Origin: Eledone cirrhosa
Taxonomy: Eukaryota
Length of the DNA: 64,000 nt
Direction of reading: 5' to 3'
Assembly (NCBI GenBank): GCA_964016885.1
Contig: OZ024745.1
Coordinates: 19,964,001-20,028,000, forward strand
The translations under genes and the position numbers were made by a program. Below the pieces are notes generated by a model. It saw only the letters and a program-made list of their open reading frames with translations, searched no databases and had not been told where the DNA came from. The first letter of the stretch is position 1. The number at the start of each line of letters is the position of its first letter. Below are positions 19,917 through 64,000 of the stretch, in pieces.

Positions 19917-22900
19917 CATAATTACACACACATAACTACACACACACAACCACACACACACACATAACTACACTCACACATAACTACACACACACAACCA
20001 CACACACACACATAACTACACTTACACATAACTACACACACACATAACTACACTTACACATAACTACACACACACATAACTACACTCACACATAACTACA
20101 CTCACACATAACTACACTCACACATAACTACACTCACACATAACTACACTCACACATAACTACACTCACACATAACTACACTCACACATAACTACACTCA
20201 CACATAACTACTCCCACATAACTACACTCACACATAACTACACTCACACATAACTACACTCACACATAACTACACTTACACATAACTACACTCACACATA
20301 ACTACACTCACACATAACTACACTTACACATAACTACACTTACACATAACTACACCTACACATAACTTCACCTACACATAACTACACCTACACATAACTT
20401 CACCTACACATAACTACACTCACACATAACTACACTCACACATAACTACACTCACACATAACTACACCTACACATAACTACACCTACACATAACTACACC
20501 TACACATAACTACACCTACACATAACTTCACCTACACATAACTTCACTTACACATAACTTCACTTACACATAACTTCACCTACACATAACTACACGTACA
20601 CATAACTACACCTACACATAACTTCACCTACACATAACTACACCTACACATAACTACACCTACACATAACTTCACCTACACATAACTACACCTACACATA
20701 ACTACACCTACACATAACTACACCTACACATAACTACACCTACACATAACTACACCTACACATAACTTCACCTACACATAACTTCACCTACACATAACTT
20801 CACCTACACATAACTACACTCACACATAACTTCACCTACACATAACTTCACCTACACATAACTACACTTACACATAACTACACCTACACATAACTACACC
20901 TACACATAACTACACCTACACATAACTTCACCTACACATAACTACACTCACACATAACTTCACCTACACATAACTTCACCTACACATAACTACACCTACA
21001 CATAACTACACCTACACATAACTTCACCTACACATAACTACACCTACACATAACTACACCTACACATAACTACACCTACACATAACTTCACCTACACATA
21101 ACTTCACCTACACATAACTTCACCTACACATAACTACACTCACACATAACTTCACCTACACATAACTTCACCTACACATAACTACACTTACACATAACTA
21201 CACCTACACATAACTACACCTACACATAATTACACCTACACATAACTACACCTACACATAACTTCACCTACACATAACTACACTCACACATAACTACACT
21301 CACACATAACTTCACCTACACATAACTTCACCTACACATAACTTCACCTACACATAACTACACCTACACATAACTACACCTACACATAACTTCACCTACA
21401 CATAACTACACCTACACATAACTACACCTACACATAACTTCACCTACACATAACTTCACCTACACATAACTACACTCACACATAACTACACTCACACATA
21501 ACTACACCTACACATAACTTCACCTACACATAACTTCACCTACACATAACTACACTCACACATAACTTCACCTACACATAACTTCACCTACACATAACTA
21601 CACTTACACATAACTACACCTACACATAACTACACCTACACATAACTACACCTACACATAACTTCACCTACACATAACTACACTCACACATAACTACACT
21701 CACACATAACTTCACCTACACATAACTTCACCTACACATAACTTCACCTACACATAACTACACCTACACATAACTACACCTACACATAACTACACCTACA
21801 CATAACTTCACCTACACATAACTTCACCTACACATAACTACACTCACACATAACTACACCTACACATAACTTCACCTACACATAACTTCACCTACACATA
21901 ACTACACTCACACATAACTACACCTACACATAACTTCACCTACACATAACTTCACCTACACATAACTACACCTACACATAACTTCACCTACACATAACTA
22001 CACCTACACATAACTTCACCTACACATAACTACACCTACACATAACTACACCTACACATAACTTCACCTACACATAACTTCACCTACACATAACTACACC
22101 TACACATAACTTCACCTACACATAACTACACCTACACATAACTACACTCACACATAACTACACTCACACATAACTACACTCACACATAACTACACTTACA
22201 CATAACTACACCTACACATAACTACACCTACACATAACTTCACCTACACATAACTACACTTACACATAACTTCACCTACACATAACTACACCTACACATA
22301 ACTACACCTACACATAACTACACCTACACATAACTACACCTACACATAACTTCACCTACACATAACTACACTTACACATAACTACACCTACACATAACTG
22401 CACCTACACATAACTTCACCTACACATAACTACACCTACACATAACTTCACCTACACATAACTACACCTACACATAACTTCACCTACACATAACTACACC
22501 TACACATAACTTCACCTACACATAACTACACCTACACATAACTTCACCTACACATAACTTCACCTACACATAACTACACCTACACATAACTTCACCTACA
22601 CATAACTACACCTACACATAACTTCACCTACACATAACTACACCTACACATAACTACACCTACACATAACTTCACCTACACATAACTACACCTACACATA
22701 ACTTCACCTACACATAACTACACCTACACATAACTACACCTACACATAACTACACCTACACATAACTTCACCTACACATAACTACACCTACACATAACTT
22801 CACCTACACATAACTACACCTACACATAACTACACCTACACATAACTACACCTACACATAACTTCACCTACACATAACTACACCTACACATAACTTCACC

Positions 22901-23685
22901 TACACATAACTACACCTACACATAACTACACCTACACATAACTACACCTACACATAACTTCACCTACACATAACTACACCTACACATAACTTCACCTACA
23001 CATAACTACACCTACACATAACTACACCTACACATAACTACACCTACACATAACTACACCTACACATAACTACACCTACACATAACTACACCTACACATA
23101 ACTACACCTACACATAACTTCACCTACACATAACTACACCTACACATAACTTCACCTACACATAACTACACTTACACATAACTACACCTACACATAACTA
23201 CACTCACACATAACTACACTTACACATAACTACACCTACACATAACTACACTCACACATAACTACACTTACACATAACTACACCTACACATAACTACACC
23301 TACACATAACTACACCTACACATAACTACACCTACACATAACTACACCTACACATAACTTCACCTACACATAACTTCACCTACACATAACTTCACCTACA
23401 CATAACTTCACCTACACATAACTACACTCACACATAACTACACTTACACATAACTACACCTACACATAACTACACCTACACATAACTACACCTACACATA
23501 ACTACACCTACACATAACTACACCTACACATAACTACACCTACACATAACTTCACCTACACATAACTTCACCTACACATAACTTCACCTACACATAACTA
23601 CACTCACACATAACTACACTCACACATAACTACACCTACACATAACTACACTCACACATAACTACACCTACACATAACTACACCC
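19917..23685. repeat. 16-bp minisatellite (ACTACACCTACACATA)n, about 235 copies
   Basis: Continuous 16-bp period with variant units ACTAC/ACTTC and ACCTA/ACTCA/ACTTA. Confidence 0.97.
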
Positions 23686-25240: not shown

Positions 25241-27463
25241 ATCCCTTGTCCTGAACAGCATTGCTGCATATGCTTGAAAATGCTGATGGTTGCAGCATGT
25301 TTTAATCTATTGCAATTTAGTTTATAGTAAAAAGAAAAAAACATTTATAATACCCATCATCATCACTGTTTTACGTTTGATTTTCCATGTTTGAATGGTT
25401 GGACAGGTTATTACATTGATGTGGAAAAAATAACCAAAAATTTAGAGAACACAAATTTTACAATAAAATATGTCTGATGTCTAACTATAGTGTCTATCTA
25501 GGGAAGTTCCTTGCTATCATGGACATAGTAATGAGAATTGGATTCATATTCTCATTTAAATGTACGTAGGTTAGGCTTCTGTCTGTTACTGCTACCATGT
25601 AACCCAGTACAACCTGCTTCATGGTTGAGTGGTTGGCAACTAAACAAGCTCTCCCACCAGATCCACAAAAAAAACAAACAAACAAAAAAGAACAGCTGTT
25701 AAAAAGGCAGATGAACTCAATTGGCCAAGTGTAGTGAGTACAGCTACACCTCTGACATGACCAAAACCAAACAGTGGTGAGGGTCATCCAGGGAGGGTTT
25801 CCTTCAGCAGGAGCGAGAAGGCCCTGGATTGGGTTGGAGGTTATTTCAGCCAGTTTTGGGCAGGTGGATAATGAAAAGGTTAATGTCTCAGGCATTTTTA
25901 TTTCCTGTAGTTTTGTTGCATTTCTTAAGCTTTATATCCATATGAGTTATTAGAGCAGTTATTTTTAATGCCAACCACTAAACTATGAAGTGAGTAAGAT
26001 TGGCATCTATTCTCAGCAGGTAAACTAAAAATACCCTTTTCTTAATAAAGGAGGCTCAGTGAACACCCAACACAGACAAAAAATCCCCTTTTGCCTGTCT
26101 CATCTCTCATTCAGCTATCATGTTTCAAGATTACTATAATAAAAAAGATTTTTATGTTATTTTTGTTGTTGTTGTTGAAAGTAATACTTGTATTACTGTA
26201 AAAGTAAATGTTAAAAGAAAACTAGAATCAAAGCAGTGTTTTATAATTTTCTTTGTTAATCTTGTTTTAATCAACCAATTTGAGAGCAAATCTCTTGAAA
26301 CAGGCTCTGGTTCTATAATGATACAAAACTACTTTTGAAATATTCGTATTTATCTAAAAACCTTCCATCATAATTCTTTTTGTAAGAACGTTTGTTAAGT
26401 TATATTCCAAACACCAACTTAATAATGAGAAAGTTGCTGTATATACAAGAATATAAGCTGAGGAATATGTAACCAAAAACAAAATGGGGGATTCATATGT
26501 GTTGATTAGCTAACTCGGCTTATAAACAGGGTTTGAATTTTTGCCCATTTCTCAGACATCAAATAGGAGGAGTCGGTGGCTTATATTTGAGTATATACGG
26601 TAGTTACATTACTAAATCCCTCCAAATTCTTGATGATTTCAAATCTATTTGAAAATCATAGGCACTGTCACTTCAAAATATAGTAATGAATGGAATATAA
26701 ATGTCTATTCTGGTGGAAATATAACTTTGAACATATAAGAAATGTAAGAAATGCATAGTAATAACTATTTCTAACATAGGAGACACAATGTTAGAAATTT
26801 GTGTAGGGTTAGTTGATTAAATCAGTCCCGGTACTTGACCTTGGAAGGATGAAAGGCAAAGTTGACCTTGGCGAGATTTGAATTCAGAACAAATACCTCA
26901 ATACTTGCTTAAAATAGAATTTATCACCTTTCTAATGTTGGATGTTGCATACCCTGGAAAAAAGTATTTTGAATAAAGATGTGTATAGACAGGTGTCTCC
27001 AGGTTCTTTGACAGCTGTGTGTCATTATATAATGAAAAATAATAATGAAAATTATTGTGTACAGTGCTCAGGTGCACTACAACTCATCAAAGGTACATAT
27101 ATAGTACATAGAATAATGTACAAAAACACAAATAGGTAAACAGTTAATAAACTAATTTTATGAAACTGAATTTCATATTTATTACATACATATATACATA
27201 AATACCAGTGTAATTTTACTTCCTATGTCAAGATCACATTTTAAACTACACGTTGGGAATCCTTTATTTGAAATTCCTGGGAGTGGAATTGTTTTGGATT
27301 TGGGAATATTTGTATGCCATTCTACAGCATCTATAAAATGGGACAGCTTGGGAATGGAACCCAATCCGAAACAATGTAGAAATCAAGCCAGAATCAGTTC
27401 CCGTCCCACCCTTGTAAGCAGGGAAAAGTGGACGTAAAATGATGATGATGATTATATATATAT

Positions 27464-28257
27464 AAGATTTACATATACACAAAGTCATAGATATATATGT
27501 GGCAACCATTCATGATGTGGCTCAATGAAGAATTAATAAATTAAATAATCAGAGCAATATATCATAAAATATGTCCATAGAATCATTAGATAAAATATAT
27601 ACACTATTTCCTCTCCCAATTAACATAATTAACCACATAAAAAATCAATTAGACCAGGCTATAAGAATAAAGGCTCCTATGAAGAAATATTTGATAAATA
27701 AACTACAGCAGCCTCTTCGCGGCTGACCGCAACAGAATATTTACCCAACATTTCAACAGCATGTAGAAACTGACTAAATATACCATCAACATTTAGGTAT
27801 AAATTTAAAGTTAGAAGAAATGAGTACACTCTTACCGTGATTATGTCTCTACCCTGTGTTTCGTTCGCGTTTTGAGATATCTTATTAAGGATAAATCTCG
27901 AGTATCGAACTCATCAGGGGACAAACTCATAGGACAGTTAATTTTCCAAAGCGATCCCCACCAGAAATAGATTAAAAAATGGCTAAGAATCGTGACATGG
28001 CAGTGGTCAAGCTAGAAAGAATGTGATTAGTTGCTTACGGCGAGTGGGCTGGTTGCTAGAAAGCGCAGCCCAATATTGCTCAAATTGCATCTCAACCTAC
28101 TGGGAGATTATTAAATATAAAGATTTACATATACATAAAGTCATAGATATATATGTGGCTCAATGAAGAATTAATAAATTAAATAATCAGAGCCAATATA
28201 TCATAAATTATGTCCATAGAATCATTAGATAAAATATATACACTATTTCCTCTCCCA
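27464..28257 (-). mobile_element. Retrozyme / Penelope-like non-autonomous element with terminal direct repeat
   Basis: Direct repeats at 27464-27618 and 28120-28257, (TA)n on both sides, internal hammerhead, no ORF. Confidence 0.78.
27844..27923 (-). ncRNA. Type I hammerhead ribozyme
   Basis: Minus strand: TGTCCC-CTGATGA-GTTCG...CGAAC-GAAAC-ACAGG-GTA^GAGACA; stem I pairs 5 of 6, stem II is extended by GAGAT/ATCTC. Confidence 0.82.
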
Positions 28258-28357
28258 CTATTTCCTTTATATATATATATATCGGGAGCTTCCAACAGTA
28301 ATGGTTGCATTCTTTAAGGGTATGTCAATATTTATTTATAAAATTGCTCTATATAAA

Positions 28358-28420
28358 ATTTTATCTGATGAAAGCACACCATAATTTAACTTGGTGTCCT
28401 TGAAATATGTATAATGAAAT
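28358..28420 (+). ncRNA. Type I hammerhead ribozyme inside (TA)n-flanked element 28283-28548
   Basis: ATTTTAT-CTGATGA-AAGCACACCA...TGGTGTCCTT-GAAAT-ATGT-ATA^ATGAAAT; all three stems pair. Confidence 0.8.
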
Positions 28421-28560
28421 ATGGTTTTATAAATATAGTTTCCATTTGTCAATATCGTATTTTTACTCCAATTATTTGTTGAGTGCTTTATATCAGTTAT
28501 AAAAATATTTGCTTGTTGTATCCCAACAATTTAAATAGAACTTTTGCATATATATATATA

Positions 28561-36286: not shown

Positions 36287-37391
36287 CAGTGAAACCTTGG
36301 TTCACAAAGTTAATTTGTTTCTGAAGGCCGTTCGTCAACCGAAATGTTTGTAAACCGAAACTATTTTTCCCATACAAAATGTTGAGAGAGAAATACAGTG
36401 AGAGATAGAGACTATGTGTGAAAGATAGATAGATATCACCATAGTAACTAACTACACAGCAAGCGACACTTTCTCGCTGATACTCCCAGCTTGTCGGCAA
36501 TCATTGTTGCCAGCTTGCGTGTTAATTACTCGAGACATTGTTCATCACCCTCAGATGTTTTATGTTTGGAAAAATTGTCTGAACAGATTTATTCATGACA
36601 AAAGGTGTTCATGAACTGATTTGTTCATGACGAGAGGTGTTCATGAACCAATTTATTCACAACAAAAGGTATTCATGAACCAATTTATTCACGACAAAAG
36701 GTATTCATGAACCAATTTATTCACGACAAAAGGTGTTCATGAACCAATTTATTCACGACAAAAGGTATTCATGAACCAATTTATTCACGACAAAAGGTAT
36801 TCATGAACCAATTTATTCACGACAAAAGGTATTCATGAACCAATTTATTCACGACAAAAGGTATTCATGAACCAATTTATTCACGACAAAAGGTGTTCAT
36901 GAACCAATTTATTCACGACAAAAGGTATTCATGAACCAATTTATTCACGACAAAAGGTATTCATGAACCAATTTATTCACGACAAAAGGTGTTCATGAAC
37001 CAATTTATTCACGACAAAAGGTATTCATGAACCAATTTATTCACGACAAAAGGTATTCATGAACCAATTTATTCACAACAAAAGGTGTTCGTGAACTGAT
37101 TTATTCACAACAAAAGGTGTTCGTGAACTGATTTATTCACAACAAAAGGTATTCCGATTTGTTCATGACGAGAGGTGTTCATGAACTGATTTGTTCATGA
37201 CGAGAGGTGTTCATGAACCGATTTGTTCATGACGAGAGGTGTTCATGAACTGATTTGTTCATGACGAGAGGTGTTCATGAACTGATTTGTTCATGACGAG
37301 AGGTGTTCATGAACTGATTTGTTCATGACGAGAGGTGTTCATGAACTGATTTGTTCATGACGAGAGGTGTTCGTGAATCGAGATTCCACTG
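36287..37391. mobile_element. Tigger/pogo-like MITE containing an expanded 32-bp tandem array (about 36585-37380)
   Basis: TA|CAGTGAAACCTTGGTTCAC...GTGAATCGAGATTCCACTG|TA; unit AAAAGGTATTCATGAACCAATTTATTCACGAC. Confidence 0.8.
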
Positions 37392-40775: not shown

Positions 40776-40844
40776 TATATTTATATCTGGTTAATAATAT
40801 CTTTAATCTGTCATAGATATTTTTATGTTGGGTTAGTTTCAATT

Positions 40845-42405
40845 GTATGGTCTAACAAGGTTAGTTTTATTTATATGGTCTAACAAGGTTAGTTTTATTT
40901 ATATGGTCTAACAAGGTTAGTTTTATTTATATGGTCTAACAAGGTTAGTTTTATTTGTATGGTCTACCAAGGTTAGTTTTATTTATATGGTCTAACAAGG
41001 TTAGTTTTATTTATATGGTCTAACAAGGTTAGTTTTATTTATATGGTCTAACAAGGTTAGTTTTATTTATATGGTCTAACAAGGTTAGTTTTATTTATAT
41101 GGTCTAACAAGGTTTGTTTTATTTATATGGTCTAACAAGGTTAGTTTTATTTATATGGTCTAACAAGGTTAGTTTTATTTGTATGGTCTAACAAGGTTAG
41201 TTTTATTTATATGGTCTAACAAGGTTAGTTTTATTTGTATGGTCTAACAGGGTTTTATTTATATGGTCTAACAGGGTTAGTTTTATTTGTATGGTCTAAC
41301 AGGGTTAGTTTTATTTATATGGTCTAACAAGGTTAGTTTTATTTATATGGTCTAACAAGGTTAGTTTTATTTATATGGTCTAACAAGGTTAGTTTTATTT
41401 GTATGGTCTAACAGGGTTAGTTTTATTTATATGGTCTAACAAGGTTAGTTTTATTTGTATGGTCTAACAGGGTTAGTTTTATTTATATGGTCTAACAAGG
41501 TTAGTTTTATTTGTATGGTCTAACAGGGTTAGTTTTTATATGGTCTAACAGGGTTAGTTTTATTTGTATGGTCTAACAGGGTTAGTTTTATTTGTATGGT
41601 CTAACAGGGTTAGTTTTATTTGTATGGTCTAACAGGGTTAGTTTTATTTGTATGGTCTAATAGGGTTAGTTTTATTTGTATGGTCTAATAGGGTTAGTTT
41701 TATTTATATGGTCTAACAAGGTTAGTTTTATTTGTATGGTCTAACAGGGTTAGTTTTATTTATATGGTCTAACAAGGTTAGTTTTATTTGTATGGTCTAA
41801 CAGGGTTAGTTTTATTTGTATGGTCTAACAGGGTTAGTTTTATTTATATGGGCTAACAAGGTTAGTTTTATTTATATGGTCTAACAAGGTTAGTTTTATT
41901 TGTATGGTCTAACAGAGTTAGTTTTATTTATATGGTCTAACAAGGTTAGTTTTATTTGTATGGTCTAACAGGGTTAGTTTTATTTATATGGTCTAACAGG
42001 GTTAGTTTTATTTATATGGTCTAACAAGGTTAGTTTTATTTGTATGGTCTAACAGGGTTAGTTTTATTTATATGGTCTAACAGGGTTAGTTTTATTTGTA
42101 TGGTCTAACAGGGTTAGTTTTATTTGTATGGTCTAACAGGGTTAGTTTTATTTGTATGGTCTAACAGGGTTAGTTTTATTTGTATGGTCTAATAGGGTTA
42201 GTTTGATTTGTATGGTCTAACAGGGTTAGTTTTATTTATATGGTCTAACAAGGTTAGTTTTATTTGTATGGTCTAACAGGGTTAGTTTTATTTATATGGT
42301 CTAACAAGGTAGTTTTATTTATATGGTCTAACAGGGTTAGTTTTATTTATATGGTCTATCTGGGTTAGTTTTATTTATATGGTCTAACAAGGTTAGTTTT
42401 ATTTA
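40845..42405. repeat. 28-bp minisatellite, resuming at 45064-45118 and 45335-45500
   Basis: TATGGTCTAACA[A/G]GGTTAGTTTTATTT[A/G], about 55 copies. Confidence 0.95.
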
Positions 42406-45063
42406 TCATCATCATCATCATCATCATCGTTTAACGTCCGTGTTCCACGCTTGCATGGGTTTGGACGGGAGTTTTCCCACTTGAGGCAAGAGTGATCGTC
42501 TTGCTCGCATAGGACTGTCTGGCGGGTTTTCTACAGCTGGATGCCCTTCCTAACACCAACCACATTTACAGTGTGGGGCTGGGAGGTTTTTACCGTGTTG
42601 CCTACACGGTCACATTACAGCGTGGACTGTGTATTTTTTTGTCGTGACACCTACACGATCTCATTTGTTTCGGCCTGGATGTTGTGGCACCAACGTAACT
42701 TTATATTGAAAGGGGCGGTGTGGATGGGGTGGGGGTGGTGGGACGGGGGTGTATTTTGTTAGAGATGCCTACTGGCTGTAGTGGGTTTTACTTTGTATTT
42801 AGGTAAGGCGGGTCTTCTCTATTACTGAGTACCGCCAAAGGTCTCGGTCCAGTGACATTGTCTTGGAGAGGTGTAAGTGTGTGAGGTCGGAATTTATCAG
42901 CTCGTCCCAGGTTTTTCTGGGTCAGCCTACTCCGTGGCTACCGTCTATCTTTATTGCCCTGCACTTTGTTATACAGCTGTCGTCTTCCATGCGCATCACG
43001 TGACCATACCAATGTAGCCTTCTCTCGAGTAAACAACATCTGATCCCTCTTATTTCTAATTTTTTCCTTAGTTCGTTTATGCTTTGCCGTTCACGTATAT
43101 TACTATTACACATCCAGCGGAGCATGCAAGCTTCGTTCCTCTCTAGTTTGCGTATATCCTCTGCACACAATGCCCAGGTCTCACTGCCATGCAACATTGC
43201 TGTCGTATGCAGGCATCATACAACCTGCCTTTCATTTTTAGGGAGAACCCTTTAGCGGCTAATAGTGGTATAAGCTCTCTGAACTTTTTCCATCCAGTTC
43301 TGACTCTAACTACTGTACTTTCAGAGCACCCTCCCCCACTGCTGATTTTGTCACCTAGGTAACGGAAGCTGTCCACTATTTCTATAGAACCCTCTGCGCA
43401 ATTGAAAGAGCTAGTATTTTGTGGGCACTTGCTGCTACTTATTGCACCAGAGCACCGGCCACATGTAAAATCTATGTTCTTAGTTAGCTTACCTGTGATC
43501 CCACTACATCTTTTATGTACCCATACTTTGCATTTGGGACATAAAATGGAGTTTCTACCTACGCCTTTCCTACACACTGAGCATGGCCATTTCCGGGAAG
43601 GGACCGGCGCCCTATTTTCTTTCTTACAAACTAGAACTTTAGTCTTAGCCAGGTTAATTTTAAGGCTTTTTGATTCTAGGCCGTGCTTCCATGTTTGGAA
43701 TTTCTTCTCTAGCTCGGCCATTGATTCAGCTATGAGCGTTAGATCATCTGCGTATAGGAGTTCTCATGGGCAGCTGGTCTTGAACTCCACTGTTATAGCC
43801 TGAAGGGCAATAATAAATAGGAGGGGGCTAAGGACGGAGCCCTGATGAACACCAACTTTTACACTAAACTCTTCACTATATTCGTTGTTAATTCTAACCT
43901 TGCTGACTGTTTCTTTATACATGGCTTGTATAGCTCTCACAAGCCATTCGTCAACACCTAGTTTTCTAAGAGACCACCAGATAATGGAACGGGGGACTCT
44001 GTCGAAGGCTTTCTCCAAGTCAACAAAAGCTAAGTATAGGGGTTTACTTTTAGCTAGGTACTTCTCCTGTAGTTGTCGTACAATGAAAAGAGCGTCTGTG
44101 GTACTTTTGCCTGACACAAAACCGAACTGCATTTCATCTAGATCAATTCTCTCCCTCATTAGTTGCGCTATTACTTTTTCCGTGACCTTCATGACCTGGT
44201 CGATTAATTTAATGCCTCTATAGTTACTCCTATCTAGGGCATCTCCTTTACCCTTGTAACAGTTAATGATGATGCTGCTACGCCAGTCCTTCGGAACAAC
44301 CCCATTCTGTATGACTTGGTTTACTATTCGGGTGACCATGGTGTGTCCCACCGTTCCAGAGGCTTTCAGCATCTCAGCAACTATTTCCGAAGGCCCAGCC
44401 GCCTTACCCATCTTCATATCTTTGATTGCCTTACTTATTATACTACCTTCGACTAACACTGCCAGTCCCTCTATTGGGTCGATGTGGGGGAGACTGTCTT
44501 TCTCCCATTTATTCTCCTCATTTAGAAGCCTTTCGTAGTGACACTTCCAAGCTACCTACTTATCAGCGTCAGTGATGGCAAGTACGCCATCATCATTAAG
44601 TACACACTTCTCCCCGACAATATCACGGTTTTCCTTGACACATTGCCTAGCAATCCTGAACACCTCACGTTTTTGGTCCTCACGTTGTAGAACATGCTTG
44701 AACTTTCTTTCCTCTGCTTCCTTTCTTGCGAAGTACACTTGTCTCCTAGCTTCCCTCCTGGCCACTTGATAGTCTTCTCTACTTCCCCCATCCCGCCATA
44801 CTTTCCAAGCTTGCTTTTTAGCCTTAATTGACTCCTCCACCTTACTGTTCCACCACCATGTTACTCTCCTCCTACCTACAGGCCTGCTCCAGCCACAGAC
44901 TTCGTCTGCCGCCGTCAGCAGGTTTGCTTTCAGGAATTCCCACTGTTCCTCTATATTATACGACTCTAATTGCTCTTCTTTACTGTCGAAAGCATCAAGT
45001 AACATGCTTTGAAATTTATTTCTGGCTGTGGGGTCCTTTAGCTTCCATATTTTTCTCCTGAGG
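42406..45063 (-). mobile_element. RTE-clade LINE family 1, 5' truncated, ORF disrupted
   Basis: ORF pieces 44556-45005, 43764-44459, 43143-43721 and 42922-43197 give FVDLEKAFDRVP, GVHQGSVLSP, YADD and WYGHVMRM; (GAT)n tail at the left end. Confidence 0.95.
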
Positions 45064-45118
45064 ATATGGTCTAAAAGGGTTAGTTTTATTTATATGGTCT
45101 AAAAGGGTTAGTTTTATT

Positions 45119-46275: not shown

Positions 46276-46448
46276 AACGTTTGTATTTGTAAAGCCAAAA
46301 CAATGCAGGTATGGATATAGAATAAAAATGCAAATTTTTATTCTATGTCCATACCTACATTGTTTTGGCTTTACAAATACAAACGTTTATACCTCATTAC
46401 ACAATGCTTCAAGTGAACTATAACTTCCTATATATATATATATATATA

Positions 46449-47653
46449 GGTGTTGAGGAATGGCTTGTAGGACAGTGCAAACTTTGTACAGAGGTACTCT
46501 CAGTAAAGTCAGGGTAGGAATGGAGTTTAGTGAGGAATTCCAGATACAAGTAGGAGTACATCAGGGTTCGGTCCTCAGCCCGCTCTTGTTCATTATAGTC
46601 CTCCAAGCCATAATAGAGGAGTTTAAGACCGGCTGTCCATGGGAACTTCTCTATGCTGACGATCTGGCTCTTATAGCAGAATCAGTAGAGGAGCTAGAGA
46701 ATAAATTCCGGCTATGGAAACAGCAGTTGGAAGCAAGAGGACTGAGAGTAAATCTAGCTAAGACAAAAGTGTTGATGAGTAGAAAAGAGGACAAAACCCT
46801 GATTCCGTTAGGGAAATGGCCATGTTCGATATGCAGAAAAGGAACTGGCATAAATTCTATAAAATGCACACAATGCAGGTCCTGGGTACACAAGAGATGT
46901 AGCGGGATAGCAGGCAAACTAAGAGGTAGGGAGAAATATGTATGCAGTAGATGTACAGGGAAATTAGACAGTAGAAGTCGCACTGATAGACACATTTTTC
47001 AAATGCGAGAGGGCGCTATAGAAGTGGTGGATAGCTTCCGGTACCTAGGAGATCAGATTAGCATGGGAGGAGGGTGTTCCGAGGCCATAGTATCTAGAAT
47101 AAGGACGGGTTGGAAGAAGTTTAGGGAGCTGCTTCCTCTGTTGACGAAGAAGGGTTTCTCCCTGCGTACGAAAGGCCGGTTGTATGATGCCTGTGTGAGG
47201 AGCGTGATGCTGCATGGTAGTGAGACATGGGCAGCAACCGCAGAGGATATGCGACGGCTGGAGAGAAATGAGGCAAGCATGCTCCGTTGGATGTGCAGTG
47301 TAAATGTGCGTGAACGACCCAGCATAAATGTGTTGAGAGAGAAACTGTGTCTGAGAGGGATAGAATGTAGTGTACGGGAGAGGAGACTGAGGTGGTATGG
47401 ACATGTGATGCGCATGGAGGATGACCGATGGGTGAAGAAGTGCCAGGAAATGCCAGTTGAAGGAAGACGTGGTAGAGGTAGACCACGAAAAACATGGGCG
47501 GAGGTGGTGAGAACAGACCTCAGATCATTGAAGCTCACGGCGGAGATGACGAGGGACCGTGACGAGTGGAGAGATGCTGTGCTGAATAAGACCCGTCCCA
47601 CCCTTGCAAGCAGGGAGAAGCGGACGTAAAATGATGATGATGATGAATGATGA

Positions 47654-47655
<2 letters not shown>
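46449..47655 (+). mobile_element. RTE-clade LINE family 2, 5' truncated, with open RT C-terminal ORF (46460-47629)
   Basis: GVHQGSVLSP, LLYADD, FRYLG, RLRWYGHVMRM and GRPRKTW; stop codon followed by (TGA)n; (TA)n on both sides. Confidence 0.95.
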
Positions 47656-47685
<30 letters not shown>

Positions 47686-47690
<5 letters not shown>

Positions 47691-48339
47691 GAAGAGAGAA
47701 GAAACATTTAGATATAATTAGTAATAAAATGTATCATACCTAAACTGCTCCTAAATTCCTCGACTACGTAGTTTCGTGGCATAAACAAAAACAATATATC
47801 ATAAAGATATAGAGTCCCTGCGAGGTCTGCCGACTTATCAAGAGGATACCTCATTTTACTAGTCTCAAGAACGCGTCTACACGACGTGAGAAAGAATCCC
47901 AAAAGGCGGAGGGGGAGATAGTCACGCGATATAACGGTCGAGAAACAGAGCTAAGCCTCTTATAACCACGAAGAAAATACCACGGAGGCGGAGGGGGTAT
48001 TCATATCGAGGCCGCAGAAGAGGTGGTGAAGAAGGCTAGAAGTATGAGTAATGGAAGCTTTCCAGTTGTCCCCACACTTCAAAGATTGCTCGACCAGAGG
48101 GAGTTATTAACAATATATTTAGAAACACACAGATACATGCGGACACACACATATATACATGAATGCATCCGCACCCAACTGTGAGTTAAGGGTGCCAACT
48201 TCACCGATGTTGCTCAATGAATGACCGGGACAGACCAATTCAGTTGAACCAGACTGAACCAGTATCAGAGTTAAAAATACATTATGAAGAGAGAAGAAAC
48301 ATTTAGATATAATTAGTAATAAAATGTATCATACCTAAA
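47686..48339 (-). mobile_element. Retrozyme / Penelope-like element: 595-bp monomer plus perfect 59-bp terminal direct repeat
   Basis: 47686-47744 is identical to 48281-48339; (TA)n on both sides; internal hammerhead. Confidence 0.8.
47757..47846 (-). ncRNA. Type I hammerhead ribozyme, U3-A8 core variant
   Basis: Minus strand: TCCTC-TTGATAA-GTCGGCA...TGCCAC-GAAAC-TACGTA-GTC^GAGGA; stem III ACTACGTAGT is palindromic. Confidence 0.75.
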
Positions 48340-49319: not shown

Positions 49320-49358
49320 ATATATAAGAACAAAAGATGGTTAAAAGAGTTCCATGTA

Positions 49359-49425
49359 TTTTATTATGCCCATTTCAAAAACAAATATCATCATGCAATA
49401 ATATTTGTGTTTTCATCAGATAAAA
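49359..49425 (-). ncRNA. Type I hammerhead ribozyme, left arm
   Basis: Minus strand: TTTTAT-CTGATGA-stem II-GAAAT-GGGC-ATA^ATAAAA. Confidence 0.78.
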
Positions 49426-49885
49426 CATGAAGACATGATATGAAGGTTAAAAAATACTTGTGGATAGTTCAGTTTTAAATCAACATATGAGAAGTAGTTT
49501 TAGATTGATGTGTGATATTGGGAAAAATATTTTATTTACATTATTTACATTATTTTTCTCTTCGTTAATTTTCAAATTCTTTTAATTTATACATTATCTT
49601 CCAACGGTTTTCAACCTCTATGTAAAACAATATATCTTTCTCAGTTATAAAAGCTATCTCTCTCTCTCTATCACCCATCTCTCCTCCTATCTCATCCTTC
49701 CTCATTATACTCCTCCCTCTCCACTTTTTACTCTCATCTCCTCCTCTTTTTCATCCTTTCCACCCCCCCCTCTAAATAAAATATTTTTCCCAATATCACA
49801 CATCAATCTAAAACTACTTCTCATATGTTGATTTAAAACTGAACTATCCACACGTGTTTTTTAACCTTCATATCATGTCTTCATG

Positions 49886-49952
49886 TTTTATCTGATGAAA
49901 ACACAAATATTATTGCATGATGATATTTGTTTTTGAAATGCGCATAATAAAA
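49886..49952 (+). ncRNA. Type I hammerhead ribozyme, right arm
   Basis: TTTTAT-CTGATGA-AAACACAAATATT...GATATTTGTTTTT-GAAAT-GCGC-ATA^ATAAAA; stem III ATGCGCAT is palindromic. Confidence 0.85.
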
Positions 49953-50985
49953 TACATGGAACTCTTTTAACCACCTTTTGTTCTTATATATTATGTATAC
50001 TCCAGTCCTACATACTGTAGAGTGCTTATTATCTGATATCTGCATTGCTTTATTGTACTACAATAAAACTCACCTCCTACATATATATATATATATCTAT
50101 ATATATATATATATATATATATATAGATGTGCGTGGTGTTGTGGTAAGGGTGTTGAACATACGATCACTATCAATATTTAGAATATCATCTCATCCTCAC
50201 ATAGAAACACCACTGCTTTCTCTGTTGTTTAGTAATCTTCAAGGATCACTGTTAGGTTCTTGAGTATGTTATTCTCTGACAATTTGTTGACCTTGTATGA
50301 GTAGCTGCCTCTGCAGATGTCTAAATCATGTTGATGTATGATCCGCTGGTAATTGGATCTCTTACTTCAAGAAATTCTTCAAGTTAAGTGATTCTGATTG
50401 ACAAGTACCTGTAGTTCACTGGCAGGTGTAACAGCCCTGACAAGTACCTGTAGTTCACTGGCAGGTGTAACAGCCCATCACCCTCTCTCTTTGTACTACA
50501 TATTCTACAAGAAGTTGGTCACCAAAATCATTGGCCCTTACATTTTTTTCCAAATTTCCTTTCAACCATTGTTTCTTCTTCAATTTGTTGGTCCATGTCA
50601 CCTTTTCACTGTTTGGGGATAGTAAGGATTGGTTGCTCAACCTTGCTGACTTACCGCTCTTCCTTCCCTTTCTTCCTCTCCATCTTCCCCTATCTCTCCA
50701 TTTCCCCACTCTTGCCCCCCCCCCCCTCTATCTCCCCCCCCCCACACTAATGACTGGTAATCTCTATATATGTACATATTCACTAGTTTCATAGTTTCAA
50801 CTTTACAAGAAATAAGAAACAATGATAATCTGAACAAATAATTGTATTAATATTGATGAGAAGATTGAAAGGAAACCAAATAGTCTTTAGCATTATAACT
50901 CAGGTAATGACTGCTTAGCCTTTACTTATACTTATATTTCAACCTCTTTAAAGTCAGTAGCCATTTTGTATTAAAGAAGAAAGAA

Positions 50986-59603: not shown

Positions 59604-61036
59604 AGGGCGGGTAAAATTCCCGAGATCCATGGACGAGATCTCTCCAGCGGTCTCTGTCCCTCATTATCGCTGCCATGTCCTGCGTCTCTAACAGACCAGT
59701 GTCTGTCCTTAGGGCATCAACATACGTTAACCTTGGTCTTCCTCTTCCAGTGTGTCCATGTAGGGGCTCCCACAGGAGCACTGAGTGCAATGTCAACTCT
59801 GGATGTCGGTGAGCATGTCCAGCTAACCTCAGTCTCCTCTGTGTCACTTTTGGGAGGCTCCCATACAGCTCTGAGTTTTTCATGCTCAGTGTATACTGAT
59901 TAATGTTCAGAGCCATCCTCAGCATTCTCGTGTAGCACCCATCCACCATCTGAGTGAGTTTCTTGGTCAGTGTCCAAGTTTCAGACTCGTACAGCAGCAC
60001 AGACTCCATTACAGCAATGATAGAGAAGATCAGAAGTGTGGAGAGAGCGGTTGACAGGTCTGGATGTAAGGAGAGCTGGATGATTATCAACAAAATCACA
60101 GAGAGGAAGAGGTGTTCTAGTCAGATCTAGGGAACAGGGCCCGAGGATAGGAAGAGGAAATGGCTAGACCATTATAGGACCCTACTAGGAGAGCCGCCCT
60201 CCACAGCCCAGAGCACTGGGGAGATCAGGCGGCTGTTTCAAGAACTGGATATTGAGACAGAGCCCTTCACCAGAGAAGAGCTTCAGAGAGCCAAGAAGAA
60301 GATCAAGGAGGGCAAGGCTCATGGAGAAGATGGAGTGGCATCAGAGGTGATGAAGAGGTCTGATTTTGATGATATCATCCTGGGGTTCTGTAACCAGGCA
60401 CTGGAGAAAGGAGTTGCCCCGAATCAGTGGAGGATCAGTAACATCGTCCCAGTGCCAAAGAAGGGAGATCTCTCTAACACCAACAACTACCGGGGGATCT
60501 CACTGACGTCACTTGTGGCAAAGACCCTCAACAGGATGATTCTTAACAGGATCCAGCCTGAGATGGAGAAGAAGCTCAGGGACAACGAGAATGGCTTCAG
60601 AGAGGGAAGATCAACCACCAGTCACATCCTGATGCTGAGGAGGATATTAGAGGGAGCTAGAGCAAAGTGCCTTCCTGCGGTCATGGTTTTCATTGACATT
60701 AGGAAGGCCTTTGATTCTGTGGACCGTCACTGCCTGATGAAAATCTTACAGGCTTATGGAATCCCCAAGAAGATAGTGGACCTGATATCACTGCTCTACA
60801 CCAACACACAAAGCCCAAGTCATTACACCTGATGGGATGGCAAAGTTCTTTGAGATACTGGCTCCAGGGAGATACATTGGCTCCCTACCCTTTTATCATC
60901 GTAGTGGACTATTGTATGCGCCTTGCACTGGAGAAACACCAGGACTCTGGCTTTACTGTAGCACCGGCTCAGAGCAGGAGAGTTAAGGCGAAAAAGATAT
61001 CGGATTTCTGAATTTGCCGATGACATAGTTTTGGTG

Positions 61037-61639: not shown

Positions 61640-61885
61640 AGGCTCATTAGGCTGGTGCTTATCCTGGTTTTCGTGACATTAAGCAACTGAGAGTACAAGA
61701 CCCTCCCACCAGTCCATCTCAGAGTTAAACCCCTCACTATTGCTGGCACTCATGTTCAGCTGAATATAATGGAGCAACATGAAATGAAGTGTTTTGCTCA
61801 AGAACACAACATACAACCCAGTCCAGCAATCAAACTCACAACATTATGATTGTAAATCCAACACCCTTACCACTAGACAACATCC
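61640..61885 (-). mobile_element. Older tRNA-derived SINE related to family B
   Basis: GGAGCAACATGAAATGAAGTGTTTTGCTCAAGAACACAAC central domain and a tRNA-like head. Confidence 0.7.
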
Positions 61886-61918
61886 ATTTATTTAATTAAT
61901 TATTTAATTAATTATGAT

Positions 61919-64000
61919 TGGGAGAAAGACAGTCTCCCCCACATCGACCCAATAGAGGGACCAGCAGTGTTAGTCCAGGGTAGTACAATAAGCAAGGCAA
62001 TCAAAGATATGAAGACGGGTAAGGCGGCTGGTCCTTCGGAAATAGTTGCTGAGATGCTGAAGGCATCTGGTTCGGTGGGACACACCATGGTCACCCGGAT
62101 AGTTAACCAAGTCGTACAGAATGGGGTTGTTCCGAAGGACTGGCGTAGCAGCATCATCGTTAACTGCTATAAGGGAAAAGGAGATGCCCTAGATAGGAGT
62201 AACTATAGAGGCATTAAATTAATCGACCAGGTCATGAAGGTCACGGAAAAAGTAATAGCGCAACTAATCAGAGAGAGAATTGATCTAGATGAAATGCAGT
62301 TCGGATTTGTGTCAGGCAAAAGTACCACAGACGCTCTTTTCATTGTACGACAACTACAGGAGAAGTACCTAGCTAAAAGTAAACCCCTATACTTAGCTTT
62401 CGTCGACTTGGAGAAAGCCTTCGACAGAGTCCCCCGTTCCATTATCTGGTGGTCTCTTAGAAAACTAGGTGTTGACGAATGGCTTGTGAGAGCTATACAA
62501 GCCATGTATAAAGAAACAGTCAGTAAGGTTAGAATTAACAACGAATATAGTGAAGAGTTTAGCGTAAAAGTTGGTGTCCATCAGGGCTCTGTTCTTAGCC
62601 CCCTACTATTTATTATTGCCCTTCAGGCTATAACAGAGGAGTTCAAGACCGGCTGCCCATGGGAACTCCTATACGCAGATGATCTAACGCTCATAGCTGA
62701 ATCAATGACCGAACTAGAGAAGAAATTCCAAACATGGAAGCACGGCCTAGAATCAAAAGGCCTTAAAATTAACCTGGCTAAGACAAAAGTTCTAGTTTGT
62801 AGGAAAGAAAATATGGCGGCAGTCCCATCTGGGAAATGGCCATGCTCAGTGTGTAGGAAAGGCGTAGGTAGAAACTCCATTTTATGTCCCAAATGCAAAG
62901 TATGGGTGCATAAAAGATGTAGTGGGATCACAGGTAAGCTAACTAAGAACATAGATTTTACATGTGGCCGGTGCTCTGGTGCAATAAGTAGCAGCAAGTG
63001 CCCACAAAATACTAGCTCCTTCAACTGCGCAGAGGGTTCTATAGAAATAGTGGACAGCTTCCGTTACCTGGGTGACAAAATCAGCAGTGGGGGAGGGTGC
63101 TCTGAAAGTACAGTAGCTAGAGTCAGAACTGGATGGAAAAAGTTCAGAGAGCTTATACCACTATTAGCCGCTAGAGGGTTCTCCCTAAAAATGAAAGGCA
63201 GGTTATACGATGCCTGCATACGAACAGCAATGCTGCATGGCAGTGAGACCTGGGCATTGTGTGCAGAGGATATACGCAGACTAGAGAGGAACGAAGCTTG
63301 CATGCTCCGCTGGATGTGCAATAGTAATATACGTGAACGGCAAAGCATAAACGAACTAAGGAAAAAATTAGAAATAAGAGGGATCAGATGTTGTTTACTC
63401 GAGAGAAGGCTACGTTGGTACGGTCACGTGATGCGCATGAAAGACGACAGCTGTATAACAAAGTGCAGGGCAATAAAGATAGACGGTAGCCACGGAGTAG
63501 GCAGACCCAGAAAAACATGGGACGAGCTGATAAATTCCGACCTCACACGCTTACACCTCTCCAAGACAATGTCACTGGACCGAGACCTTTGGCGGTACTC
63601 AGTAATAGAGAAGACCCGCCTTACCTAAATACAAAGTAAAAACCTACTACAGTCAGTAGGCATCTCTATCAAAACACCCCCCCGTCCCACCACCTCCACC
63701 CCATCCACACCGCCCCTTTCAATGTACAGTTATGTTGGTCCCACAACATCCATGCCGAAACAAATGAGATCGTGTAGGTGTCACGACAAAAATCACACAG
63801 TCCACGCTGTAAATGTGGCCGTGTAGGCAACACGGTAAAAACCTCCCAGCCCCACACTGTAAATGTGGTTGGTGTTAGGAAGGGCATCCAGCTGTAGAAA
63901 ACCCGCCAGACAGTCCACGCTGTAATGTGGCCGTGTAGGCAACATGGTAAAAACCTCCCAGCCCCACACTGCAAATGTGGTTGGTGTTAGGAAGGGCATC
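61919..64000 (+). mobile_element. RTE-clade LINE family 1, 5' truncated, with open RT ORF (61967-63628); 3'UTR runs off the window
   Basis: 553-aa ORF with all RT motifs; near-identical to 42406-44507 in opposite orientation. Confidence 0.96.

Follow-up and report, generated by a model that had tools for sequence, protein, structure and literature searches.

The segment at 27464-28257 of the Eledone cirrhosa DNA analysed here (64,000 nt, hereafter the window) is a solo copy, 1.2 units in length, of a repeat family that is present many times, codes for no protein and conserves a type I hammerhead motif; it likely represents a non-LTR retrozyme inserted into (TA)n by a Penelope-like reverse transcriptase (RT)/endonuclease. 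The anatomy of the element, its many related copies and the better-paired ribozyme in most of them are direct observations; the steps of its insertion we infer. The element is protein-free, has a GC content of 34% and is built on a 656-nt monomer as follows.

27464..27618, minus strand: long terminal redundancy copy, 155 nt, delimited by alignment (polarity taken from the ribozyme strand)
27619..28119, minus strand: unique part of the 656-nt monomer
28120..28257, minus strand: short redundancy copy, 138 nt, without the 18 nt between two 7-nt microhomologies
28256..28266, no strand: at the right junction, 28241-28251 copied a second time (11 nt), seen directly
27453..27464, no strand: left (TA)6 tract, preceded by a LINE/SINE 3' end tailed with (TGA)n
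28268..28281, no strand: right (TA)7 tract

Alignment of the two direct repeats gave 135 matches, 2 substitutions, an 18-nt gap and one 1-nt gap, in agreement with the original prediction of 155/138-nt repeats differing mainly by an 18-nt indel. The 18-nt gap is flanked by two copies of one 7-nt word, hence the element has periods of 656 and 638-639 nt, where about 640-656 nt had been anticipated. The (TA)n foreseen on both sides is present as well (6 units on the left, 7 on the right); the left tract is short, in part matches the element's own letters preceding the right repeat (BLAST reaches 27450) and has ATATA in common with the monomer junction. In a check for target duplication, the flanks were found to have only TA-repeat words in common. 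Coding capacity is nil, the longest stop-free frame in six frames being 77 codons and no ORF of at least 120 aa overlapping the element. There is no tRNA gene in the unique part, and a second copy of the element is absent within the 64-kb window. A minus-strand Pol III B-box-like word was disregarded, as it has no A box. The 155-nt copy is likely the 3' end of the ribozyme-sense RNA (with the polarity of the ribozyme strand), at which reverse transcription started, and the 138-nt copy a likely 5'-truncated, pseudo-LTR-like second round; the 11-nt re-copy would then likely be the product of RT slippage at the 5' junction.

The ribozyme motif, detected by a descriptor scan, lies entirely on the minus strand within the unique part.

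27844..27923, minus strand: type I hammerhead motif, core intact
27923-27918 with 27849-27844, minus strand: helix I, 5 of 6 pairs
27917-27911, minus strand: core, intact
27910-27863, minus strand: helix II hairpin, 5 pairs and a bulged extension, 48 nt in total
27862-27859, minus strand: GAAA
27859-27851, minus strand: helix III, 2 pairs
27852-27850, minus strand: GUA cleavage triplet, predicted cut 27850/27849

The minus-strand hammerhead with a long stem II was thus recovered with the cut at the predicted place. It had been called canonical, which holds for the core and for helices I and III and not for the long helix II. It is the sole match of that descriptor in the window, with none in 40 shuffled windows; of 5000 dinucleotide-shuffled versions of the element, 1 matched, although the descriptor was written once the motif was seen and the significance is therefore somewhat overstated. 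Rfam reported no hammerhead among its 39 matches at E<=1 in the window, a miss explained by the limit of its models for a long helix II.

With direct terminal repeats round a non-coding core and an overall length comparable to plant LTR retrozymes, the segment might also be taken for a short LTR element, of TRIM or plant LTR retrozyme type, whose LTRs measure 155 and 138 nt. Plant LTR retrozymes (PMC4918200, as described in PMC7229834 and PMC7761336) resemble the element in having a hammerhead, in being non-coding and in falling in the 600-800-nt size class. However, those elements have a type III ribozyme in each LTR, a PBS, a PPT and a GC content above 55%, none of which holds here, and a 4-bp target site duplication, where the flanks here have only TA-repeat words in common. 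The ribozyme is of type I, single and outside the repeats, the repeats are unequal, and neither orientation of the element shows a PBS, a PPT or TG...CA ends, the longest purine run before the downstream repeat being 6 on the plus and 2 on the minus strand. An LTR element is therefore extremely improbable, and this half of the original preference for a permuted circle over an LTR element stands.

Folded as a circle, the minus strand of the monomer is 58-60% paired, with z of -1.4 (8/90 shuffles) and -2.2 (1/90) depending on register, in what is a decayed copy. In this predicted fold helix II is stable (p 0.99-1.0); loop III pairs with the core (p 0.97-0.99), and neither helix I nor helix III forms (p 0.2 or less). 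The predicted energy is -20.1 kcal/mol, against -14.2 with the core held open. With the core so locked and helices I and III unformed, the ribozyme monomer of this copy is predicted to be inactive, and its single weakened ribozyme should leave the copy unable to release unit-length RNA by itself. A locked core is also what a self-replicating viroid-like RNA circle might show, in which case the element would be a DNA footprint caught at random points by host RTs and the copies would be freely permuted; the more-than-unit length, cDNA across the cut site and AU-rich microhomology at the left junction are in keeping with this. Yet the lock is promoted by this copy's own helix I mismatch, ribozymes occur in one polarity only, the fold is weak and branched, not rod-like, and vertical inheritance would account for the numerous diverged genomic copies found under two species labels, all of which makes a viroid-like origin very improbable.

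Of eight public sequencing runs listed, five contain part of the stretch, and the family was traced in four of the eight: X1 and X4 (compared as contigs), X5, and X6 (raw reads of a reduced-representation library), X4 carrying a second species label; X2, X3, X7 and X8 were left out. In X1, the flank is represented by a lone 306-nt contig (27097-27402, 0 differences) with a depth of 2.9, and bins of the unique part total 3,393-230,607, a summed contig depth and not a copy number; contigs number 20 at position 27919 and 64 at position 27997. The reduced-representation reads of X6 gave 77-765 in the unique-part bins versus 0-2 at 27230-27339. Pieces across the ribozyme were found in X4 (e.g. 27870-27994 with 3 differences and 3 gaps), and X5 yielded 9 short partial matches only and was not taken as containing the element. 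The family is hence multi-copy under two species labels, and dozens to hundreds of copies remain even if overlap of short contigs inflates the X1 sum by an estimated ~30-fold. The existence of these copies disposes of the idea, raised together with the original prediction, that the repeat is a local segmental duplication without relatives. Elsewhere in the window, a short piece of another very high-copy repeat (27050-27124) is common to species labels A and B. A metagenome scan with a repeat word returned no matches. A scan with the ribozyme pattern returned 17 metagenome matches and 1 viral-contig match, none of the 18 element-like beyond the pattern (best E 0.33); these loci (L001-L018) have hammerhead-like cores with a long helix II and are unrelated to the element.

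Among the variants within the family, 40 of 296 were listed and 4 of those fall inside the ribozyme (27844-27923). At 27919 the majority letter (144 of 167 X6 reads, 20 X1 and 2 X4 contigs) closes the helix I mismatch; at 27857 it (34/47) adds a helix III pair and turns helix III into a 4+1+4 palindrome, a dimer-type design according to PMC4209133; at 27882 it (80/95) adds a Watson-Crick pair that lengthens distal helix II; and at 27904 it (118/167) sits in an internal loop. Three of the four majority differences therefore add a Watson-Crick pair and none affects the core, though core changes in a minority of copies may hide beyond the 40 of 296 variants listed. The other outcome that would have told against the prediction, a hammerhead that is not conserved, is thus contradicted. 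The better-paired majority letters indicate that the ribozyme has been kept in the family, likely by selection, and that the present copy is, judging from its sequence, a slightly decayed version.

In other copies, 28023-28139 runs into the long form of the repeat, with joints to 27479 and 27500 supported by 2 X4 contigs and by 3 and 9 X6 reads. The end-to-start junction is thereby shown to be a feature of the family, short of proof of tandem arrays, and the joints suggest that it is the right repeat which lost 18 nt. No tandem array of the family was seen, the window containing one copy and the longest aligned pieces over the element measuring ~140 nt. In contigs X1 record 7 and X4 record 14, the match to the short redundancy copy ends at 28154. 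The junction also bears on a local tandem duplication that would have added 138 nt to an ordinary monomer after insertion. At 27588/28227 and 27605/28244 both repeats carry this copy's own letters where most reads and contigs differ, as such a duplication predicts, but a single template predicts likewise. Given that 28023-28139 joins repeat sequence in other copies, and that the unrelated 47686 element is built on the same plan, a local duplication is disfavoured and can hardly be credited.

The element might instead be the 5'-truncated terminal part (3' UTR and pseudo-LTR) of an autonomous Penelope-like element (PLE) and not an independent 656-nt unit, for PLE insertions are described as partial tandems that have lost much of their 5' part and carry hammerheads close to the ends (PMC8557442 and PMC4209133). 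The X1 depth over 27505-27669 is 3-5 times that over 27945-28164, as might be expected if another family had this 3' segment in common; however, the excess is absent from X6. For this reason, and as summed contig depth is unreliable, its reading as a 5'-truncation gradient was rejected. Rejected as element ends were also X6 molecule ends such as those at 27621, 27647 and 28086, since all 6 ends listed, of 16, lie on AATT, that is, on library cut sites. Against a PLE terminus stand the absence of any coding remnant, a ribozyme without the additional nucleotide that follows A9 in minimal PLE hammerheads according to PMC4209133, and the contigs of other copies, from two species labels, that cross the junction 28119/28120, so that the unit closes on itself. 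An origin as a PLE terminus is accordingly unlikely, and the non-LTR retrozyme remains the preferred reading.

A second element of the window, between (TA)n tracts at 47686-48339, consists of a 595-nt monomer with a 59-nt redundancy.

47686-47744: first repeat, 59 nt
47841-47835, minus strand: type I hammerhead core, a U3-A8 core with a long helix II

As had been claimed, the architecture of the two elements is alike and their sequences differ: the best similarity is 25 nt at 84%, in short AT-rich words, so that two unrelated families share one plan. The supposed contrast in ribozyme position was not confirmed, since the ribozyme of the 47686 element also lies outside its repeat, by 17 nt. Its cut at GUC (47762/47761) is 76 nt from the 3' end, its U3-A8 pair is a covariation reported in PMC4209133, and its circular fold (z -5.4, 0/25) is better than that of the 27464 element. 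A wider scan found 5 hammerhead cores in the window versus 0.2 expected from 15 random sequences, all of them in (TA)n-bordered elements; a genome in which PLEs targeting (TA)n are active would be expected to show such a picture.

The remaining cores belong to two neighbouring structures. A high-copy repeat adjoining the 27464 element between (TA)n tracts (28283-28547), with a read depth far above that of the element, carries a plus-strand core at 28365 with a palindromic helix III. Near (TA)n, 49322-49540 and 49773-49989 are inverted relative to each other and agree at 98% over 217 nt; a hammerhead sits in either arm (cores at 49419, minus, and 49892, plus), an arrangement typical of PLEs and reminiscent of their inverted pseudo-LTRs. 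Directly 5' of the two monomer-plus-redundancy elements, one and the same LINE/SINE 3' end, tailed with (TGA)n, is found (27375-27453 and 47592-47655), the ribozyme strand being antisense to it in both cases. Two of the seven copies of the (TGA)n tail in the window are followed by (TA)n, both with a monomer-plus-redundancy element, and the adjacency probably reflects a shared (TA)n target.

The element best fits a non-LTR retrozyme or non-autonomous PLE in its way of working, that is, a new family of a known kind, for which copies longer than one unit have been described before. It combines an intact type I hammerhead core, no coding capacity, many copies and a GC content below 50% with the lack of LTR, PBS and PPT. 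Metazoan non-LTR retrozymes (PMC7229834 and PMC7761336) are likewise non-coding, low in GC and multi-copy, have a type I hammerhead with a short palindromic helix III, lack LTR, PBS and PPT, show indel variants of ~20 nt and solo monomers, and are proposed to pass through more-than-unit cDNA made by PLE enzymes, as may be the case here. The element differs in its 656-nt unit, compared with 170-400 nt in PMC7229834, in its long bulged helix II and in its 1.2 units with a single ribozyme; its predicted circular self-pairing is also weaker than that of retrozyme circles, described as highly self-paired. Retrozyme units of 51-972 bp and frequent solo monomers are reported in bioRxiv 10.64898/2026.07.22.740005, a range that takes in the 656 nt of this unit, and the size and long helix II are regarded as minor departures. 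With PLEs that form pseudo-LTRs (Hydra and Naiad, PMC8557442; Poseidon-Ac, PMC11167929) the element shares a partial tandem, in which a full unit follows a 5'-truncated partial copy, the (TA)n target and a hammerhead upstream of the 3' end with a palindromic helix III, of the 4+1+4 form in Hydra-1_Obim (PMC8557442 File S2) as in the family majority. Unlike PLEs, it lacks an RT and GIY-YIG ORF, its ribozyme lies outside the redundancy, and a 30-40-bp tail was not recognised. In a check for homology to PLE ends, 4 short words of the element, searched as exact words, had no matches in the PMC8557442 supplement.

No autonomous partner was identified, all RT frames of the window with Pfam hits being LINE-type. 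The window as a whole is rich in AT and crowded with LINE-type RT fragments, tandem repeats and microsatellites, as befits an animal-type nuclear sequence, and its repeat landscape resembles that of an octopod. LINE-type RT frames lie at 43143-45089 (minus), 46457-47629 (plus), 60131-60832 (plus) and 61877-63628 (plus), in three of which the RT is followed by a PHD finger; for the longest, numerous relatives occur in animals and marine samples, with identities of about 50-57%, the named ones including a hydrozoan, amphioxus and a catfish. A 3.8-kb array of a 16-nt unit (19917-23684, 236 copies) displays extreme strand skew, further arrays occupy 36580-37377 (32 nt) and 40831-42406 (28 nt), and a long near-perfect, MITE-like inverted repeat (46279-46384) is situated beside a (TA)32 tract.

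Insertion of the element as a non-LTR retrozyme may be pictured as follows. Tandem source loci elsewhere would be transcribed, and the ribozyme, probably as a dimer via the palindromic helix III, would cut the multimers to unit length; the unit-length RNAs may be ligated to circles. The enzyme would nick (TA)n and prime within the RNA, at an AU-rich stretch lying 386 nt downstream of the cut. With the polarity given by the ribozyme strand, the cDNA would start at 27464, beside (TA)n that has ATATA microhomology to the unit's own junction, cross the intact cut site, finish a full unit, add 138 nt of a second and stop with a short slip, leaving the 11-nt re-copy. In agreement with this picture, a Penelope-like RT was reported to nick AT-rich DNA in vitro, to start internally and to use mainly uncut RNA (PMC11167929), and partial tandems are given as the usual form of Penelope-like insertions, with (TA)n as the target of the Naiad and Hydra clades (PMC8557442). 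Counting against it is the distance from RT start to cut, 386 nt in this element versus 76 nt in the 47686 element; the corresponding distance in PMC11167929 is roughly 85 nt or more.

As for the template, the mid-monomer position of the ribozyme, from which a permuted circle had been deduced, requires only that the template be intact across the cut site. A circle comes close to an even chance, and the same degree of belief is held for an uncut tandem transcript; two RNAs joined by a template jump are improbable. In a single copy, a circular template cannot be told apart from an uncut multimer by its footprint; the deduction of a circle is therefore not decisive, and a permuted circular template is not established. 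A ligated circle with more-than-unit cDNA is, moreover, the published retrozyme model (PMC7229834, PMC7761336 and PMC4209133), and a circular template would therefore not be new. It is conceivable, if doubtful, that this family and the unrelated 47686 family both represent large (600-650 nt) single-ribozyme RNA circles, copied in rolling fashion by a Penelope-like enzyme that targets (TA)n and primes at varying AU-rich sites. If so, genomic copies would be circular permutations with random redundancy, and the circle-template step, which the cited papers propose without demonstrating, would be directly proven in the genome.

No description of such a family was found among the matches listed in the octopus hammerhead ribozyme literature, a search that did not extend to repeat libraries or Repbase; as far as these searches go, the family is undescribed and belongs to an already known kind of animal mobile element. 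Retrozyme integration from a circular template via PLE enzymes is proposed, and not shown, in the papers cited. The value of the family is modest and lies in its use as test material: in a high-copy family with dispersed 1.2-unit insertions, the start and stop points across copies can separate a circle from an uncut tandem RNA.
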